A DNA stretch of 64,000 nt. It comes from an uncultured bacterium (GTDB lineage Bacteria; Fermentibacterota; Fermentibacteria; Fermentibacterales; Fermentibacteraceae). The position numbers were made by a program, and so were the translations under genes. The stretch lies in the NCBI GenBank assembly GCA_964603785.1, contig CAZRWD010000001.1, positions 24,352 through 88,351 on the forward strand. Reading direction: 5' to 3'. The notes under the pieces were generated by a model that saw only the letters and a list, made by a program, of their open reading frames with translations, had not been told where the DNA came from and made no database searches. Within the stretch, counting starts at the first letter, position 1; every line of letters begins with the position of its first letter. This document shows, piece by piece, positions 9,942-17,914 of this stretch.

Positions 9942-10081
9942 AGGGAACCCCCCTCCGTCGAGTGGAAGATAGCCCCGCCGGGCAGGTGACGGCCATCGTC
10001 CCGTCCCCGGCTGCCGCCCGGCGCCCGCATGCCTCATCCTGTGCAGTTTGCCCCGGGGGTGCGGTTCCCTATGATCCAGCC

Positions 10082-13000
10082 ATGTCTGGAATCCGGCAGG
10101 AACCGGACCGGGGGGACCCGGGCATCCGAAGGGCCATCGAGGCGGTCGAGGCCCTCGAAGGGATCCTCCCCGCCGAGGTGCGCGGGACCGTCCTGTCCGT
10201 GCTGCGCGACAGGATGCGCCGCGGGCCCGGACCCGGCGTCACGGGCGAGGGCGACATCCGCAGGCAGGCTTCGATCCTCTTCGCCGACATCACGGGCTTC
10301 ACGTCGATCTCCGAGTCGCTCGACCCGGAGCACGTCACGGATGCGGTCAACTCCCTCTGGATCGAGGTCGACGGGGTCATCAGGGATCACGGCGGCTGGA
10401 TAGACAAGCACATCGGCGATGCCGTGATGGCAGTCTGGGGGATGGGGCGCACGAGGGAGGACGATCCGGTGCGCGCCGTCAGGGCGGCCCTGGCGCTGCA
10501 GGAGCGCATCCGGCTGCTGAGGGAGTCCTGGCCCAGGCCCTTCAGGATGCGGGCGGCCGTTCACACCGGGCTGGTCTACATCGGGAGGGTCGGAACCACC
10601 GGCGAGTACACCGCGATAGGAGACGCCGTCAACACCGCGAGCAGGCTCCAGTCCGCGGCCCCTCCCGACGGCGTCCTGATATCGGGCGACACGTCGCGCC
10701 TCGTCAGGGGCGCATTCGAGACCGTGCCCGTCGAGCCTCTCAGCCTGCACGGGAAGAGCAGGAGGATCGACGCCTGCCTTGTCACCGGGGTCTCGGGCGC
10801 CGGACGGATAGAACGGGGGATCCCCGGCATCTCCTCGGGTCTCGTCGGGAGGCGCGGGGAGCTCGAAGCCCTCGTCGGGCACGCCGGGAGGTGCGCCACG
10901 GGGGAAGGGTCTCCGCTCCTGACGGTGCTCGGCGAGGCCGGCATGGGCAAGTCGCGCCTCTCGGACGAGTTCCTGCGGGCGCTCCGCCCCGGCTCCGGGG
11001 ATGCGCCGATGACCGCACGGGCGACATGCTCTCCTGATTCCGGGGAAAGCCCGATGTCTCTGTTCCGGGACGCCCTGGGCTCGATGGCTGGCGTCTCCGA
11101 TTCCGATCCCCCTGCCGTGCTGCTGGATAAGCTACGGGCGGCCTTCGGCGGGGAGGTCCCTGCGGAGGACGCGGCACTCGCGGGCAGCGCTGCGGGCTTC
11201 GACCTCTCCTCCGTCGAGTCCGTCAGGAGGCTGAGCGGCAGCGCCAGCTTCGGCGGCCAGGCCCGGGCGGCCCTGTCCCGGGTGCTCGGCGCCTCGGCCG
11301 ACAGGCAGGGCCTGCTCATGATCCTCGACGACATCCACTGGGCGGATGAGGCATCGCTTGAGTTCCTCTCCGGCCTGGCCGCGTCACCACCCTCCGCCCG
11401 CCTGGCCATCGTCTGCCTCGCAAGGCCCACCCTCCTGGAGAGGCTCCCCGACTGGTCCCGGACAGGCCGGGTGATCGAGCTGCATCCCCTCTCGGCCTCC
11501 GAGAGCGGCGAGCTGGTCTCGACGCTCCTGACCAGGCGGGACCTCCTGCCGGAGGGTCTCGTCGAGGCGATCGCGTCGGCATCCGAGGGCAATCCCTACT
11601 ACGCCGAGGAGATGCTCAGGATGATGATCGAGGAGGGGGTGCTCACGCGTGCCGACGGCTGCTGGACGTCGACCGTCGAGGACTTCGGCGGGATGGACGT
11701 CCCGACGACCCTGACCGGGATCCTACAGGCCAGGCTCGACATGCTCGACCTCGCGGAGAGGCGCCTCCTGCAGAAGGCCTCGGTGATCGGAAGGCAGTTC
11801 TGGGACGGAGCCCTGGCCGGGCTCGACGAGACCGGATGCTCACCCCTGCTGGAGTCGTTGGAGGGCCGCGGGCTCGTTCTGCAGAACGGATCCACGACCT
11901 TCGATGGGACGCTCGAGTACCTCTTCAGGCACTCCCTCCTCCGCGACGTTGCCTACGGGACTGTACTGCTGAAGCTCAGGAGGACCTATCACTCGAGGGT
12001 CGCTCGCTGGCTTTCGTCGGCGAGCCCGGGGCGCAGCGCAGAGCACTCTCCCGTTATCGCCGGGCACTTCGACAAGGCCGGGGAGGCGCCGGAGGCGGTG
12101 AGGTGGTACGTCGTCGCCGGAGACAGGGCTCGTCGGATAAGCTCGTTCGCCGACGCGCTCAGATGCTATCGAAGGGCCTCGGAGCTGCTCTCGGACGGGT
12201 CGGACGAGCCGGCCAGGGCACGGTGCCTCCACGGGGCCGGCAACTGCCTGGAGAAGCTGGGCCGGTACGACGAGGCGAGGGAGACCCTGCGCGAGGCTCT
12301 GGAGATGGCCGGGGCGTTGGGCGATCCCCTGACCGAGTCGCTCGTCCTGTCGACCCTCACATGGATCACGGGGATCATCGAGGGCATGCGCCCCGCCGAG
12401 GAACTCGCGAGGAGAGCCCTTGATGCCGCCGAGAGATCGGGCGACCCCCTGGCGCTGGCCAGGGCGGTCATGAGGATGGCCGACTACGAGGAGGAGCCCC
12501 TCTACGAGAAGCACCTGCCCTACTACCTGCAGGCCCGCGAACGCTACGGCGCGGCAGGGGACAGGCACGGGGTGGCCCTGGCCCTCCTGAACGCGGGGAA
12601 CAGCGCGATGCGGTTCGGGATGCACGAGGAGGCCCGCAGGTGGTACCGCGAGAGCCTCGAGATCTACAGGGAGATCGGGGACAGGTGGGGGCAGGCGAAC
12701 TGCCTGGGCAACCTGGGCAACGTGGAGGCCGCGGCCGGCGCCTTCGGCGAGGCAGCCGCGCTCCACCTGCAGAGCCGTGACATGTCCGACTCCATCGGGG
12801 ATGTCGAGGGAGTGGTCATCTGTCATCTGAACATGGCCGATGACTGCGCCCGGCTCGACGACCGCCCCGGACTGGCCGCCAACCTCGCGAGATGCCTCGA
12901 TCTGGCTGTCGGGGTGGGTCTGATGCCGCTCGCGATGGAGGCCGCAATGAGGCTCTGCCTCGAAACCGGGGGAGGTGCAGTGGGTGAGGTGCTGCGTCAG

Positions 13001-13153
13001 CTGGCGGTGTGCGGCGGCATGAACGACAGGGTCGAGTCAATCGTACGGGAGAGGTTTCCCGGGCTCCCGGAGAACTCCTCAGGGTTCGATCCCGATGGTT
13101 TCCGGACGGCAGTACGGGCTCTGCTCGACGAGGTTGCGGGTGCGGGGCATTGA
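10082..13153 (+). CDS. Class III adenylate/guanylate cyclase - AAA (STAND-like) ATPase - TPR protein
   Basis: [32 protein letters not shown]; Walker A GEAGMGKS; Walker B LDDIHWAD; C-terminal TPR-like repeats. Confidence 0.9.
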
Positions 13154-13281
13154 CCCGGGACAGCGCAGGTGTAGGTTACCGCATCCGGTCATGATCTAGG
13201 TCCGAAGGGCCACCCAGACCGCAGGGAAGGGTGGCCATGTTCGTCTCCACGGGAACCGGATGGCGCGATGGTCCGCTGCGG

Positions 13282-13842
13282 ATGCCCGCCACCGCGGCCC
13301 TGCTTCTCATCGACTGCCAGAAGGCGTTCACCTCTGCCGGGAATCCCGCCTCGGCGGCCGGCGCGGACGATGCCCTCGCCCGTGCCGTTCGGCTGGCCCG
13401 GCTCTTCCACGACCTTTCACTCCCGGTCTTCGCGACGATGCACGTCCACTCCGCGCCACCCCCCCGGGGAGGCATGGGAAGCTGGTGGAACACCTTCCTG
13501 GAGGAGGGCGACGCCGCCGCCGGGCTGGATCCGGCCATCTCCGGCATCGCACCGAAGGTGATCCGCAAGGAGTGCTACTCCGCGCTCCGTGGGACCGGGC
13601 TTGTCGAGGATCTCGAGATGCTGGGAGTGGACACCCTCGTGCTCTGCGGCTTCCTGACCCACATCTGCGTCGACTCCACGGCGCGGCACGCATTCCAGCT
13701 GGGCTACGACGTGCTGGTCGTCTCAGACGCGTGCGCATCGGTGTCGACCTCGCTGCACGAGGCCTCCCTGCTCTGCCTCTCCCATGCGGTCGCCCGCGTG
13801 GAGACGACCGGGAGGATAGCGCGGGTCCTGGGTTCGTGCTGA
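13282..13842 (+). CDS. Isochorismatase-family cysteine hydrolase
   Basis: Catalytic triad Asp (LLIDCQ), Lys (IRKECYSA), Cys (THICVDSTAR); start uncertain (13231-13282). Confidence 0.88.
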   Translation: MPATAALLLIDCQKAFTSAGNPASAAGADDALARAVRLARLFHDLSLPVFATMHVHSAPPPRGGMGSWWNTFLEEGDAAAGLDPAISGIAPKVIRKECYSALRGTGLVEDLEMLGVDTLVLCGFLTHICVDSTARHAFQLGYDVLVVSDACASVSTSLHEASLLCLSHAVARVETTGRIARVLGSC

Positions 13843-14711
13843 CGGGGAATGCAACCCTTGTGGTCGTCGGCGCCGGTCCGGCCGGAGTGGCGGCCGCCGT
13901 CGAGGCCGCAAGGCTGGGTGCATCGCCGGTGCTGCTCGACGAATCGGGGAGGGCGGGAGGCACGATACTGGCGGCCATGGAGGTGAGGAACCTCCCCTCC
14001 GACAGGCTCCCGCTCTCGGGCGCCGACGTCGGCTCGATGCTGGAGGCGCTGCTACGCGAGTGGGGCATCCACCCGGAGGAGGGGCGGGTGGTCAGGGTCT
14101 CCGTGCGGGGGGACTCGGTCATCGTCGCCACGGGGTGCGGCTTGGAATGCGCATGCGACCTCGCCGTGATCGCGACCGGCACCAGGGCCAGGATGCCCTC
14201 CGTGCAGGGGATGCCGGAGGGAGTGCTCCGCACATCCGCACGCGATGTCCTCCGCGATCCGGGAGTCGCGGAGGCGGCCGTGATCGGGGGAGGTGACACC
14301 GCATTCGACCAGGCGAGATTGCTCCTCGCAAATGGTCTTCGCGTGTCGCTTCTGTGCAGGTCGCAGGCCCCCTCCGCGCCCGGCTGGCTCGTGAGGAGGG
14401 CGCTGGGGGAGGGGCTGGACCTCCGGCTCTCCACCCTGGTCCGTTCCGCAGAGGCCGCCTCCGGGGGGGTCAGGCTCGTCTGCAGGGACGGTGGGGGAGA
14501 GTCGGGGATCATGTTCGACGCGGTGGTCGCGGCCGTGGGAAGGGATCCCGTCCTCCCGGACGGGGCGGCCGCCCTGGCCTCCGATCGCCCCGATCTCGTC
14601 TCGGTCGCGGGCGATGCGGACGGTTCAGCGGGAAGGTACGTCACAAGGGCGATGGCCGCGGGGATGCTCGCGGCGAGGACGCTTCTGGAGGGAATATGGA
14701 GCCGCTCGTGA
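13836..14711 (+). CDS. NAD(P)/FAD-dependent oxidoreductase, thioredoxin-reductase-like but without CxxC
   Basis: VVGAGPAG, IATG, VIGGGDTA, AGD motifs; GTG 13836 overlaps the upstream stop. Confidence 0.82.
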   Translation: MLTGNATLVVVGAGPAGVAAAVEAARLGASPVLLDESGRAGGTILAAMEVRNLPSDRLPLSGADVGSMLEALLREWGIHPEEGRVVRVSVRGDSVIVATGCGLECACDLAVIATGTRARMPSVQGMPEGVLRTSARDVLRDPGVAEAAVIGGGDTAFDQARLLLANGLRVSLLCRSQAPSAPGWLVRRALGEGLDLRLSTLVRSAEAASGGVRLVCRDGGGESGIMFDAVVAAVGRDPVLPDGAAALASDRPDLVSVAGDADGSAGRYVTRAMAAGMLAARTLLEGIWSRS

Positions 14712-15661
14712 GGCAGATCGCGCACCGTCGCGCCGGCAGTGTCGCAGACATCTTCCTGCTGTCGCTCGGGGACGACCCCCGGGAGTCGGTGGAGTGCGTC
14801 GGGGCGGTAGATCCGTCGCTGCCGTCGCGCGAGGACAAGATGGTCCTGATGGTCTCCACCCAGTTCGGGTGCCCCATGGGATGTCTGATGTGCGACGCCG
14901 GGACGGAGTTCCACGGCAGCCTGACTGACGGACAGATCCACGCGCAGATCGACTGGCTGCTCGCGACCTGGGCGGGTGACGCCGCGCGGCGCTGCCGCAA
15001 GCTTAAGGTGCAGTTCGCGAGGATGGGCGAGCCGTCCCTGAACGACGCCGTTCTGGACGTCTTGAGGGCGCTGCCGGAGAGGCACGGTCTGCCCGGCCTG
15101 CTCCCCTGCATCGCCTCGGTCATGCCCCGGGGGAGGGACGGCTGGTTCGAAGCTCTCGCAGGGATCAGGGACGAGCTGTACCCGGGCGGGATGTTCCAGC
15201 TGCAGATATCCATGCAGAGCACTTCCGAGAGCGGGAGGAGGAGGATGATCCCGGCCCCGACCATGAGCTTCGAGGAGATGGGCGGGTTCGCGGAAAGGTT
15301 CGTCGGGCAGGGCGACAGGAAGGTCACCCTCAACTTCGCCCTGGAGCAGGGCGGGGAGTTCGATCCGGGCAGCCTGCTCCGGCACTTCTCCCCGGGGAAG
15401 TGCCTCGTCAAGCTGACCCCTCTGAATCCCACGGCATCGGTCGGCCGGAACGGGCTCGTTCCCGCGGCCACGGCGAGGGACACCGCGATGCTGACCGCCG
15501 CCGCCGGAGAGGCCGCCGCATGCGGCTACGAGGTGATCGTCAGCGTCGGCCTCGAGGAGGAGAGCCTCGCTGGTTCGAGCTGCGGACAGCTCGCATTCGG
15601 GTCCGGCGGGAGGGTGCAGGCCGGTGATCTCCAGTCGCAAGTCGAAGTGCTGCAACCCTGA
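14696..15661 (+). CDS. RlmN/Cfr-like radical SAM protein (divergent)
   Basis: STQFGCPMGCLMCDAG (CxxxCxxC), RMGEP, LTPLN, C-terminal SCGQL. Confidence 0.85.
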   Translation: MEPLVRQIAHRRAGSVADIFLLSLGDDPRESVECVGAVDPSLPSREDKMVLMVSTQFGCPMGCLMCDAGTEFHGSLTDGQIHAQIDWLLATWAGDAARRCRKLKVQFARMGEPSLNDAVLDVLRALPERHGLPGLLPCIASVMPRGRDGWFEALAGIRDELYPGGMFQLQISMQSTSESGRRRMIPAPTMSFEEMGGFAERFVGQGDRKVTLNFALEQGGEFDPGSLLRHFSPGKCLVKLTPLNPTASVGRNGLVPAATARDTAMLTAAAGEAAACGYEVIVSVGLEEESLAGSSCGQLAFGSGGRVQAGDLQSQVEVLQP

Positions 15662-15754
15662 AGCACTCAGCTGCAGGACCCTCTTCATCCCCTCCCGGAA
15701 GCGCCGCACCGGGAACGGTATGGTTGGCAAGGTTATGTGCGCCGGCCGGATCCC

Positions 15755-15782
15755 TTGACGTTGCCCGGAGTTCAGCTATTAT
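15755..15782 (+). promoter_or_regulatory. Sigma70-type promoter of the RRM gene
   Basis: TTGACG-N16-TATTAT. Confidence 0.7.
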
Positions 15783-15871
15783 CCCCGTGTTTGATACAGT
15801 TTGTCTTGCGTCTGGGGTCAGTACCTTCCTCTCTGTTCACGCACTCCCCGTCCCAGGCATCTGATCAAAAG

Positions 15872-15980
15872 GGGTCCCTTCCGGACCCGGGGCCGCCCGG
15901 CGCCCATCTGCCGGGAATCTGCCCCGCGAGATCGGGGCGTGTCGGCGGGAAACCGCCGAGAGTGAGGGTGGAAGCCCTCA
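15872..15980 (+). ncRNA. Candidate structured cis-regulatory 5' leader with five consecutive hairpins
   Basis: Stems at 15872-15888, 15896-15915, 15921-15938, 15942-15959 (GAAA loop) and 15963-15980 (GGAA loop), ending directly before the SD. Confidence 0.5.
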
Positions 15981-15993
15981 GAAGGAGAGAAGC

Positions 15994-16263
15994 GTGAGCA
16001 ACAAGCTGTTTGTCGGCGGTCTCGCATGGGCCACCACGGATCAGTCCCTCGCCAAGGCCTTTTCGGCCCATGGTGAGGTCACCGAGGCTCGTGTCGTGCA
16101 GGATCGCGACACCGGCAGGTCCCGCGGCTTCGGCTTCGTGACTTTTGCCACGGCCGAGAGCGCGCAGGCTGCGAAGAACGCCATGGACAACGCCGTCATC
16201 GACGGCCGCAACGTCCGCGTCGACTTCGCAACCGACCGGGAACGCAGCAACACCAGAAGGTAA
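15994..16263 (+). CDS. RNA-binding protein, single RRM domain
   Basis: RNP2 LFVGGL, RNP1 RGFGFVTF; SD AGGAG; no Gly-rich tail. Confidence 0.95.
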
Positions 16264-16285
16264 TTCCGGGCGCTGTGTCTTTCGG

Positions 16286-16320
16286 GGGGGCGGTCCTTCG
16301 GGGCCGCCCCCTCTCTTTGT
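16286..16320 (+). terminator. Rho-independent terminator
   Basis: GGGGGCGGTCC-TTCG-GGGCCGCCCCC followed by TCTCTTTGT. Confidence 0.75.
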
Positions 16321-16411
16321 CGGGCCCTCGCACATGCCTTATGTCTTGTCCTGCTCGACCGCCGGCGGCCCGGTGATCCAGCCGCCGCTTCACGCGAGGG
16401 GGGACCTGACC

Positions 16412-17914
16412 ATGTACCGTGGATACAGGAGGGTGCTGGCGCCAATCCTGCTGCTGGCGCTGCTCCCCTTCGGCTCGGAGTCGTCGGTCTTCGTCCAGAC
16501 CGACTGGTCGGAACCGGGCGCCGACCTCCCCGTGCGCGAGTGGGCGGACGACTTCGATGACGCCTCCGGCGTCAGCCTCTCCAGCTTTCCGGGATCCCTC
16601 GTCCTGGGCTTCGAGACGACCGAGATCGGGCTCGGGGGCGTCGGAGCGCCCGTCGCCGCTCTGTCATGCGCAGACCTCGACCTCGATGGAGACTGCGACA
16701 TCGCCGCGGCCACGGGCGACCGCATCGTCTGGTTCGACAACCTCGGCGGCGGGCGCAGCTTCGCGGTCCACCCGGTCCTCCCGCCCGGCAGCGGAACACC
16801 CTCCGGTCTGGTCCCGCTCGACTCCGACGGCGACGGCGACATTGACCTCGCGGCCGTCCTGGAGCCGGGAGGATCGATCCTACTCCTGCGGAACGACGGA
16901 TTCGACATCTGGCCCGTGACCACCCTCGCCGGGGGCGTCGGAGCGGCATTTCCAGTCGTCGGTGACTTCGACGGAGACGGGCTGGACGATCTCGCGGTCC
17001 TGACTGGGACCGACCCCCTGGCTGTGGTGCTCCTGAATCCGGGTTCGGCAGGGGGGGAATGGGTCCGATCCGTGGTCGCACAGGCTCATGTCTGGGATCG
17101 TCTGTTCGCGGGGGACGTCCAGGGCGACGGAACCGACGATCTGCTGATATCCGTTCTCTCCGCCGGGATCGTGCGAATCTGCACGATGATCGACGGCGGG
17201 TGGGTCGAATGGAGTGTGAACTGCCCCTGGCCGTCGGGCTGCGCAGTCGCCGACCTTCTCGCCGACAGTCCCGGGCCGGAGACGGTCCTCTCGTCCTCCT
17301 CCGCCGATACCGTGTTCGTGGTGACGGATGACGGCTCCGGACGCAGAGCCCTCGAGCCCCTCGCGGGAGGCCTCCTGGAACCGCGTGACCCGTTTGCCGG
17401 CGACTTCGACGGAGACGGGGACGAGGACCTCGCGGCATTCTCGTCGGGCCTGGACGAGCTCTCCTGGTGGGAGAACACCAGCGGCGGATTCGAACTGCGG
17501 TTCGGGGGGAGCATCCCGGGCGTCTCCGCCGTGGCATGCGGAGACCTCGACGGAGACGGCGCCGACGAGCCTGTTACGGGGACCTCTCCTGAAGGGGAGG
17601 TGTCCTGGTGGGACCTCGGAGGCTTCGAGGACCGCGGGGAGATCGTGTCTTCGATCCTGCTGGTGTCGGAAGGAGCCCCCTCCGCGACTCTGACGGTCGA
17701 CGCGGACACCCCTCCCGGCACCTCGGTGCAGGCGAGCGTGAGGATCTCACGGGACCGGACCCGGATGGGGGACTGGATTCCCGTTTCCGGATCGGAGGGC
17801 GCCATCGCCGGCTTCCCGGCACACGGACACTTCCTCCTCCAGTACAGGCTGGTCCTGGAGTCGATGGACCCCTCCGCCACCCCCGTGGTCCGCGAGGTCC
17901 GGCTGAGGCTCTGA
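16412..17914 (+). CDS. Secreted FG-GAP/VCBS repeat protein
   Basis: Signal peptide; repeated DxDxDGDxD motifs (DLDLDGDCD, DSDGDGDID, DFDGDGLDD, DFDGDGDED, DLDGDGADE). Confidence 0.82.
   Translation: MYRGYRRVLAPILLLALLPFGSESSVFVQTDWSEPGADLPVREWADDFDDASGVSLSSFPGSLVLGFETTEIGLGGVGAPVAALSCADLDLDGDCDIAAATGDRIVWFDNLGGGRSFAVHPVLPPGSGTPSGLVPLDSDGDGDIDLAAVLEPGGSILLLRNDGFDIWPVTTLAGGVGAAFPVVGDFDGDGLDDLAVLTGTDPLAVVLLNPGSAGGEWVRSVVAQAHVWDRLFAGDVQGDGTDDLLISVLSAGIVRICTMIDGGWVEWSVNCPWPSGCAVADLLADSPGPETVLSSSSADTVFVVTDDGSGRRALEPLAGGLLEPRDPFAGDFDGDGDEDLAAFSSGLDELSWWENTSGGFELRFGGSIPGVSAVACGDLDGDGADEPVTGTSPEGEVSWWDLGGFEDRGEIVSSILLVSEGAPSATLTVDADTPPGTSVQASVRISRDRTRMGDWIPVSGSEGAIAGFPAHGHFLLQYRLVLESMDPSATPVVREVRLRL

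Follow-up and report, generated by a model that had tools for sequence, protein, structure and literature searches.

To our knowledge, no enzymes of the class A radical S-adenosylmethionine (SAM) methylase fold other than RlmN and Cfr have been characterised. In RlmN, Cys355 carries the methyl group and a second conserved cysteine, Cys118, resolves the covalent RNA-protein adduct; C118 mutants are inactive and stay cross-linked, and the C118A variant, which yields no product, has been used to trap the complex (PMC5130265). With one exception, a survey of 2010 found no Cfr/RlmN proteins in Archaea (PMC2836569). Here, a three-gene cassette is described from a 64,000-nucleotide stretch of DNA (the window hereafter) of an uncultured bacterium of the Fermentibacteraceae (assembly GCA_964603785.1, contig CAZRWD010000001.1, positions 24,352 to 88,351). 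Its genes g1, g2 and g3 encode an isochorismatase-family hydrolase, a flavoprotein of the thioredoxin reductase (TrxR) fold and a radical SAM protein of the RlmN/Cfr fold, respectively. The cassette is one translationally coupled, self-contained enzyme module, conserved in many uncultured, mostly anaerobic bacteria and archaea. Judged from sequence, it appears to combine a class A radical SAM fold that has a different catalytic set-up with dedicated partners, and such a system seems not to have been described previously: full-text literature searches found no publication on the g3 family or the cassette, and no curated model in Pfam, NCBIfam, annotated PHROG or PADLOC names the g3 family.

A distinct clade of the RlmN/Cfr fold

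The protein g3 had no Pfam match at E<0.01, and it scored only 17-33 bits with the curated RlmN/Cfr family models, the cut-offs of which are 290-633 bits (NF011034, the best, 33.3 bits versus 422; TIGR00048, 26.1 versus 290; CfrAB, 17 versus 530). Despite these sub-threshold scores, g3 is a true homologue of RlmN, because three comparisons lead to the same fold. The RlmN-like structure 6fz6 was matched by phmmer in the PDB at E=2e-9; the hhalign comparison between a profile of 30 g3 family members and E. coli RlmN gave a probability of 98.3% over 240 columns; and the AlphaFold (AF2) model of g3, with a predicted local distance difference test (pLDDT) value of 88.9, had its best PDB fold match again in 6fz6, a Sphaerobacter radical SAM methyltransferase (E=8e-14, template modelling score 0.67), other radical SAM folds being far behind. 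At only 20-24% identity, g3 shares with RlmN and Cfr the fold, the VSxQxGCxxxCxFC motif, MGEP, the (I/T)P-x-NP strand and the C-terminal CGQ loop that bears the cysteine of the methyl-carrier position. More than 2695 homologues of g3 were returned by database search, and the top library profile was phrog_24834 (75 bits, E=1e-20).

A pattern scan with one genome per species yielded at least 589 confirmed g3 relatives, and the best 80 loci of these, all from metagenome-assembled genomes, were analysed. The translated genes of these 80 loci and 120 database hits gave a family alignment of 197 distinct members, in which exactly four cysteines, Cys59, Cys63, Cys66 and Cys296, are invariant. The first three form the CxxxCxxC motif, which aligns with the cluster cysteines Cys125/129/132 of RlmN. 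Cys296 faces the methyl carrier Cys355 (SSCGQLA in g3 and AACGQLA in RlmN) and lies in a segment of the model with low confidence (pLDDT ~58); no other non-cluster cysteine is conserved across the family. The position of the resolving cysteine is different. In both the phmmer and the hhalign alignments, Met52 of g3 faces RlmN Cys118 (LMVSTQFGC versus LCVSSQVGC), and the corresponding family column holds Leu (62 members), Val (46), Met (43), Ile (38), Asn (6) or Thr (2), and Cys in none of the 197. A first-pass annotation, made from the letters of the window alone, had noticed the retained CxxxCxxC, MGEP and C-terminal CGQL cysteine as well as the methionine at the Cys118 position. These observations stand, with the cysteine pattern now extended to the whole family, and the roles that were ascribed there to Cys118 and Cys355 agree with the published work (PMC5130265).

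The same annotation considered a cysteine in SVECV, here Cys34, which adjoins a Glu105-like residue, as the replacement for the missing resolving cysteine. This residue is indeed present in g3 of the window; as a family-wide substitute, however, it has to be rejected. Its column contains Cys in 115 of the 197 members (58%) and Phe in 70 (36%), and the trio of Cys34, Cys100 and Cys138 is complete in 49 members, including the window protein, and wholly absent from 41. Since the trio is subclade-specific and absent from these 41 members, Cys34 cannot be the resolving residue of the g3 family. The trio, the codons of which are listed in Table 1, could be a subclade-specific metal site or disulfide. 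Glu33, directly before Cys34, is invariant in the family.

Only about 40 residues precede the core of g3, and the N-terminal RNA-binding domain of RlmN (~65 residues) is without a counterpart; TIGR00048 matches g3 from model position 84, and the hhalign alignment begins at RlmN residue 108. The family is also acidic, with a median isoelectric point (pI) of 5.8 versus 8.2 for the E. coli RlmN core. Within the RlmN/Cfr (class A methylase) fold, g3 therefore belongs to a separate clade, in which the SAM-cleaving cluster and, on a flexible C-terminal loop, the equivalent of Cys355 are kept and the Cys118 equivalent and the N-terminal RNA-binding domain are lost. These features are not the product of chance, because they are invariant over 197 distinct homologues and the gene order is kept in dozens of phyla. 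The names in use for the family are 'radical SAM protein' at NCBI and, for many members, '23S rRNA (adenine2503-C2)-methyltransferase' in the automatic annotation of JGI. The latter label is very probably wrong, because g3 fails three defining features of RlmN/Cfr, namely the resolving cysteine, the N-terminal domain and the score cut-offs; on the same grounds, the first-pass statement that g3 is not a canonical A2503 methylase is supported. A separate canonical rlmN was not found, as only g3 itself matches E. coli RlmN within the window and in the 80 loci.

Partner proteins and conservation of the cassette

In 77 of the 80 loci, g3 is directly preceded by a g2 homologue on the same strand, and two of the three exceptions are contig ends. 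The hydrolase gene g1 lies upstream of g2 in 59-60 loci; about seven of its absences fall at contig ends and about 12 are real. When all open reading frames within 6 kb were clustered, no other neighbour was common to more than 12 loci, the next commonest being an ATP-binding cassette ATPase (12/80). Moreover, every pair of the three genes occurs as a natural fusion, i.e. g1-g2 (L032, L037), g2-g3 (P0132, P0133) and g3-g1 (P0138, P0147, P0158, P0164, P0182). Synteny and the fusion of every pair are together strong evidence that the three proteins work jointly, probably in physical contact.

The hosts among the best 80 loci are mostly Chloroflexota/Anaerolineae, and also include Fermentibacteria, Myxococcota, Planctomycetota, WOR-3, Zixibacteria, Eisenbacteria and Krumholzibacteria. 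The closest relative among these loci is from Fermentibacteria (58% identity). Nine of the 80 loci are archaeal, belonging to Thermoplasmata and relatives, Heimdallarchaeota, Promethearchaeati and one Methanobacteriota genome. Complete genomes with the cassette include OY970370.1, OY776212.2, CP070785.1 and, from an archaeon, CP070767.1. The cassette has probably been spread by horizontal transfer. Its occurrence in several archaeal phyla, the nearly constant flavoprotein partner and the usual hydrolase partner, together with the acidity noted above, are further differences between the g3 family and RlmN/Cfr.

The flavoprotein g2 has the two-Rossmann-domain fold of the low-Mr thioredoxin reductases (TrxB) and of the TrxR-type ferredoxin-NADP+ reductases, as recognised by the Pyr_redox_2 domain. 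Its top PDB sequence matches are thioredoxin reductases at only 55 bits, and it reaches 68 bits on the TrxR model versus a cut-off of 343. The motifs for flavin adenine dinucleotide (FAD) are retained in its 78 syntenic homologues (GxGxxG in 75-77, GG in 77, ATG in >93%, and the Asp of GD in 70 of 70 non-gap sequences), as is the motif for reduced nicotinamide adenine dinucleotide (phosphate) (NAD(P)H; GxGDxAxD in 73-78 and Arg175 in 75). In contrast to TrxB, g2 is shorter (~290 residues) and lacks the redox CxxC; by sequence inspection, it reads GVLRTSARDVL just upstream of the NAD(P)H-binding GGGD, where TrxR has CxxC, and no column of the alignment holds Cys in more than 60% of the homologues. 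Because the FAD and NAD(P)H motifs are kept without CxxC or a conserved Cys, g2 is predicted to be a competent two-nucleotide flavoprotein that cannot act as a TrxR-type disulfide reductase. The fold, the absence of CxxC and the g2-g3 fusions would fit a TrxR-type ferredoxin/flavodoxin-NADP+ reductase; however, the solved enzymes of this type are not among the PDB sequence matches of g2.

The hydrolase g1 comprises a full isochorismatase domain (132 bits with PF00857 versus a cut-off of 27), like the isochorismatase-like cysteine hydrolases YecD, nicotinamidase PncA, RutB, N-carbamoylsarcosine amidase and biuret hydrolase. The Asp-Lys-Cys triad is invariant in its 60 syntenic homologues (numbering from ATG 13282), with Asp11 in 57 of 57 non-gap sequences and Lys96 and Cys129 in all 60. 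Unlike these enzymes, g1 stays under the cut-off of every named equivalog (best PRK11440, 77 bits versus 195), and its family consensus at the nucleophile, THLCCETTAR, has a CC doublet, the second adjacent Cys being found in 55 of the 60 homologues. In the window, g1 has Val (Cys-Val, codon 13669-13671) in place of this second Cys. The nearest solved structure is E. coli YecD (1j2r, E=1e-17), which is itself uncharacterised. Thus, the intact isochorismatase triad and the TrxB-like gene without redox CxxC, both put forward in the first-pass annotation, are upheld across the syntenic homologues. The self-contained unit that it proposed is likewise supported by co-conservation, with g2 beside g3 almost always, g1 in about 60 of the 80 loci, no other conserved neighbour and fusions of all pairs.

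Gene layout, neighbours and distant relatives

In the window, g1, g2 and g3 are consecutive on the + strand (13237-15661), and their ends overlap stop-to-start (Table 1). The g1 stop TGA (13840-13842) overlaps the g2 start GTG (13836-13838) in the string GTGCTGA. The g2 stop TGA (14709-14711) overlaps the g3 start under either candidate, which are ATG 14696 (overlap 16 nt, 321 residues) and GTG 14708 (GTGA, 317 residues). The latter is more likely the true start, because the N-termini of homologues align with that Val and the identical database protein P0001 has 317 residues. For g1, ATG 13237 is preferred over GTG 13231 and ATG 13282, because it follows a Shine-Dalgarno-like run (GGAAGGG) by six bases. 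ATG 13282 is probably internal to g1, as only four residues would then precede the first strand of the domain. The three overlapping genes of the first-pass annotation are therefore real, and only its g1 start, ATG 13282, needs to be revised.

Table 1 Features of the g1-g2-g3 cassette, in window coordinates
Feature	Position	Strand	Basis
g1: isochorismatase-family cysteine amidohydrolase	13237..13842	+	PF00857 E=2e-38; start uncertain
g1 catalytic Cys129 codon, motif THICVDSTAR	13666..13668	+	Cys in 60/60 homologues
g2: TrxR-fold FAD/NAD(P)H flavoprotein without redox CxxC, 291 residues	13836..14711	+	Pyr_redox_2 E=1e-21
g3: RlmN/Cfr-fold radical SAM enzyme, distinct clade	14708..15661	+	hhalign, fold match, homologues
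g3 Cys34 codon (VECV), earlier proposed as substitute cysteine	14795..14797	+	Cys in 115/197
g3 Met52 codon, RlmN Cys118 position	14849..14851	+	phmmer and profile-profile alignments
g3 CxxxCxxC, Cys59/Cys63/Cys66, radical SAM [4Fe-4S] cluster	14870..14893	+	invariant 197/197
g3 Cys100 codon, member of the cysteine trio	14993..14995	+	
g3 Cys138 codon, member of the cysteine trio	15107..15109	+	
g3 Cys296 codon, SSCGQL, RlmN Cys355 position	15581..15583	+	invariant 197/197

A promoter/terminator scan of this region found no terminator-like site between g1, g2 and g3 and no convincing promoter upstream of g1. The sole sigma70-like site on the + strand in the scan, a good match (TTGACG-16-TATTAT, 15755-15782), was assigned to the downstream gene (15994-16263), which encodes an 89-residue RNA-binding protein of the RNA recognition motif (RRM) type (PF00076, E=3e-23). 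The RRM gene would therefore have a 5' leader of ~200 nt, for which no Rfam match was obtained. Directly upstream of the cassette, and on the same strand, a gene at 9962-13153 encodes a 1063-residue protein in which a class III adenylate/guanylate cyclase domain is combined with an AAA_16 ATPase and TPR repeats; it is not conserved beside the cassette in other genomes. The neighbours in the window, i.e. a flavin mononucleotide reductase, this cyclase-AAA-TPR regulator, the RRM protein, an FG-GAP protein and an M29 peptidase, have no relation to the cassette and do not accompany it in the 80 loci.

No riboswitch or other RNA family was detected at E<=0.1 in window positions 12000-17000, and none adjoins the cassette in eight diverse loci. 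On the Fermentibacteria chromosome of the closest relative (L002), thiM/thiE-like genes running convergently towards the cassette are under the control of a thiamine pyrophosphate (TPP) riboswitch (10416-10509, - strand, 57.7 bits); this is probably coincidental, because neither the window nor the other loci scanned contain a counterpart. An anti-phage defence system was considered as well and rejected, with no PADLOC match for g1 or g3, only a 15-bit Rossmann-motif match for g2, and no g3-type family member found in the IMG/VR viral contigs.

A search of 1.84 billion representatives recovered 74 clusters at E<=1e-30, which constitute the g3 family proper, and 602 at E<=1e-3. The distant relatives correspond to phrog_24834, a phage family without assigned function. 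They share with g3 the motifs xE(F/C)x, ARMGEP, LQxSxNST, LNFA, KxTP and C-terminal CG(Q/N), and likewise lack the Cys118 equivalent and the N-terminal domain. A few distant members of the superfamily (P0243, P0258) have no C-terminal Cys. In contrast to the cassette, these relatives are only 26-31% identical to g3 and occur in phage replication or nucleotide-metabolism contexts, or as fusions, rather than with hydrolase and flavoprotein partners. The phrog_24834-type family of phages and prophages has more than 3000 homologues of ~318 residues (P0213, P0239, P0270-P0389; loci L082-L089 and L091). Its members are found in the replication module of Bacteroides phage Versailles (e.g. WAK79139.1), and in phage-like contigs their neighbours are either guanylate kinase together with a YfbR-like 5'-nucleotidase, or a Cpn60-like protein together with SAM synthetase and a DNA methyltransferase. 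In three proteins (P0224, 820 residues, P0228 and P0259; loci L092 and L093), the same radical SAM domain is fused to an energy-coupling factor (ECF)-type S-component with weak QueT matches (37, 30 and 22 bits versus a cut-off of 33.7), and P0224 adds a domain like methylthioadenosine/S-adenosylhomocysteine (MTA/SAH) nucleosidase. This architecture resembles the queK-qrtT-queL salvage operon of C. difficile. The ECF S-component and MTA/SAH-nucleosidase-like fusions and the guanylate kinase and 5'-nucleotidase neighbours hint that the superfamily may act on small nucleoside or nucleotide-like substrates. In the 80 loci, neither a QueT gene nor a nucleoside hydrolase gene was found near the cassette.

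Candidate reactions of the module

Our favoured explanation, to which we give not quite an even chance, is a self-contained module in which g2 feeds electrons from NAD(P)H to g3, and in which g3 is a radical SAM enzyme of class A type with a substrate other than RNA. In this scheme, g2 would be the module's own NAD(P)H:FAD reductase and would pass electrons straight to the [4Fe-4S] cluster of g3, resulting in a self-sufficient radical SAM system that needs neither flavodoxin nor ferredoxin; the g2-g3 fusions and the near-absolute adjacency of the two genes point to such direct reduction. The 5'-deoxyadenosyl radical would be used by g3, most likely via a methylated Cys296 as in RlmN, and a small substrate other than RNA, e.g. 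a nucleobase-like or other N-heterocyclic amide, could receive a one-carbon unit at an sp2 carbon. Four features suggest that the substrate is not RNA, namely the loss of the RNA-binding domain, the low pI, the occurrence in archaea and the kind of enzymes encoded alongside. On this substrate or on the product, g1, as a Cys-Lys-Asp amidohydrolase, would hydrolyse an amide or carbamoyl group. The thioether adduct might be resolved without Cys118 by another base or by the flavoprotein, and g2 may thus also provide the reducing step that Cys118 serves in RlmN.

Several points weigh against this explanation. The absence of g1 from about 12 of about 72 evaluable loci means that the hydrolase is not obligatory, and no riboswitch or regulator tying the cassette to a metabolite was found in the window and the loci scanned. 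One-carbon transfer by g3 is suggested by a single feature, the retained CGQ cysteine. Another base might make up for the missing Cys118, with the invariant Glu33, Glu112, Lys104, Lys239 and Glu289 as candidates; g2 could act on the substrate and not on the cluster; and the difference in pI is a weak sign of a non-RNA substrate.

Alternatively, g3 could be a radical SAM enzyme that does not methylate (a lyase, reductase or isomerase). The substrate would then be attacked directly by the 5'-deoxyadenosyl radical, with the C-terminal Cys as the hydrogen-atom donor (thiyl radical) and with re-reduction by g2 and NAD(P)H. We consider this unlikely, although it would explain why a single non-cluster Cys is conserved, and the tight coupling and fusion of g2 and g3 would suit a reaction that consumes reducing equivalents. 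The superfamily members without the C-terminal Cys (P0243, P0258) also indicate that the fold tolerates chemistry without that residue. On the other hand, the CGQ motif and its loop are homologous to the methyl-carrier site of RlmN, methyl synthase chemistry is the only kind characterised for this fold, and our analysis found no positive evidence for lyase or reductase chemistry. It is quite improbable that g3 is an RNA (rRNA or tRNA) adenine C-methyltransferase after all, with the adduct resolved by a non-cysteine base or by the partners and with g1 and g2 as accessories. Its nearest characterised homologues are RlmN and Cfr, the Cys of the methyl-carrier position is kept, and many members bear the RlmN label of JGI. 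The N-terminal RNA-binding domain is absent, however, the scores lie 10-fold under the model cut-offs, the proteins are acidic, and no RNA methylase is known to need hydrolase and flavoprotein partners. Moreover, RlmN C118 mutants are inactive and cross-linked (PMC5130265), and the cassette occurs in archaea, which were reported to be without RlmN/Cfr bar one exception (PMC2836569).

The least probable of the explanations considered, and in our opinion a very unlikely one, is that the module salvages or remodels a 7-deazaguanine (queuosine-related) compound, with g3 acting like the radical SAM queuine lyase QueL. It derives from the distant g3 relatives (26-29% identity, E ~1e-19; P0224, P0228) that carry a QueT-like ECF S-component and a nucleosidase-like domain as fusion partners, an arrangement that mirrors the nucleoside hydrolase, transporter and radical SAM lyase of the C. 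difficile queK-qrtT-queL operon (PMC11477304, PMC11130926). Several observations speak against it. The QueT matches are weak, as given above; no preQ1 riboswitch was found near the fusion genes, nor near the cassette in the window and the loci scanned; and close homologues of the fused domain reside in phage-like rather than queuosine contexts. The nucleosidase-like domain best matches MTA/SAH nucleosidase, an enzyme that also removes radical SAM by-products. In addition, IPR006638, which is listed for QueL (UniProt Q186P0), is presumably the generic radical SAM core domain and not an RlmN-type entry.

The favoured explanation, i.e. a reductase-driven class-A-type enzyme with a non-RNA substrate, can also be taken further, to a new mode of class A catalysis, which we regard as rather improbable. 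A methylene derived from methyl-cysteine would be placed onto a free heterocycle (a nucleobase, or a vitamin or cofactor precursor), and the flavoprotein, whether fused or as a partner, would take the place of a second cysteine and resolve the thioether by flavin-mediated reduction, with a logic like that of ThyX/TrmFO. Both this resolution and the reduction of the cluster would be driven by NAD(P)H, and the product would be unmasked or finished by the hydrolase. For biochemical and structural work on these proteins, the natural fusions offer ready-made constructs. The g3 family is large and sharply defined, spanning the homologues and species-level genomes counted above and including archaea, and the cassette raises the questions of whether the class A scaffold acts on non-RNA substrates and whether a radical SAM enzyme can be driven by a directly coupled TrxR-fold reductase. 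If flavin-resolved class A catalysis proves true, Asgard and Thermoplasmata archaea and many anaerobic bacteria would have in common a previously unknown methylated metabolite or cofactor.

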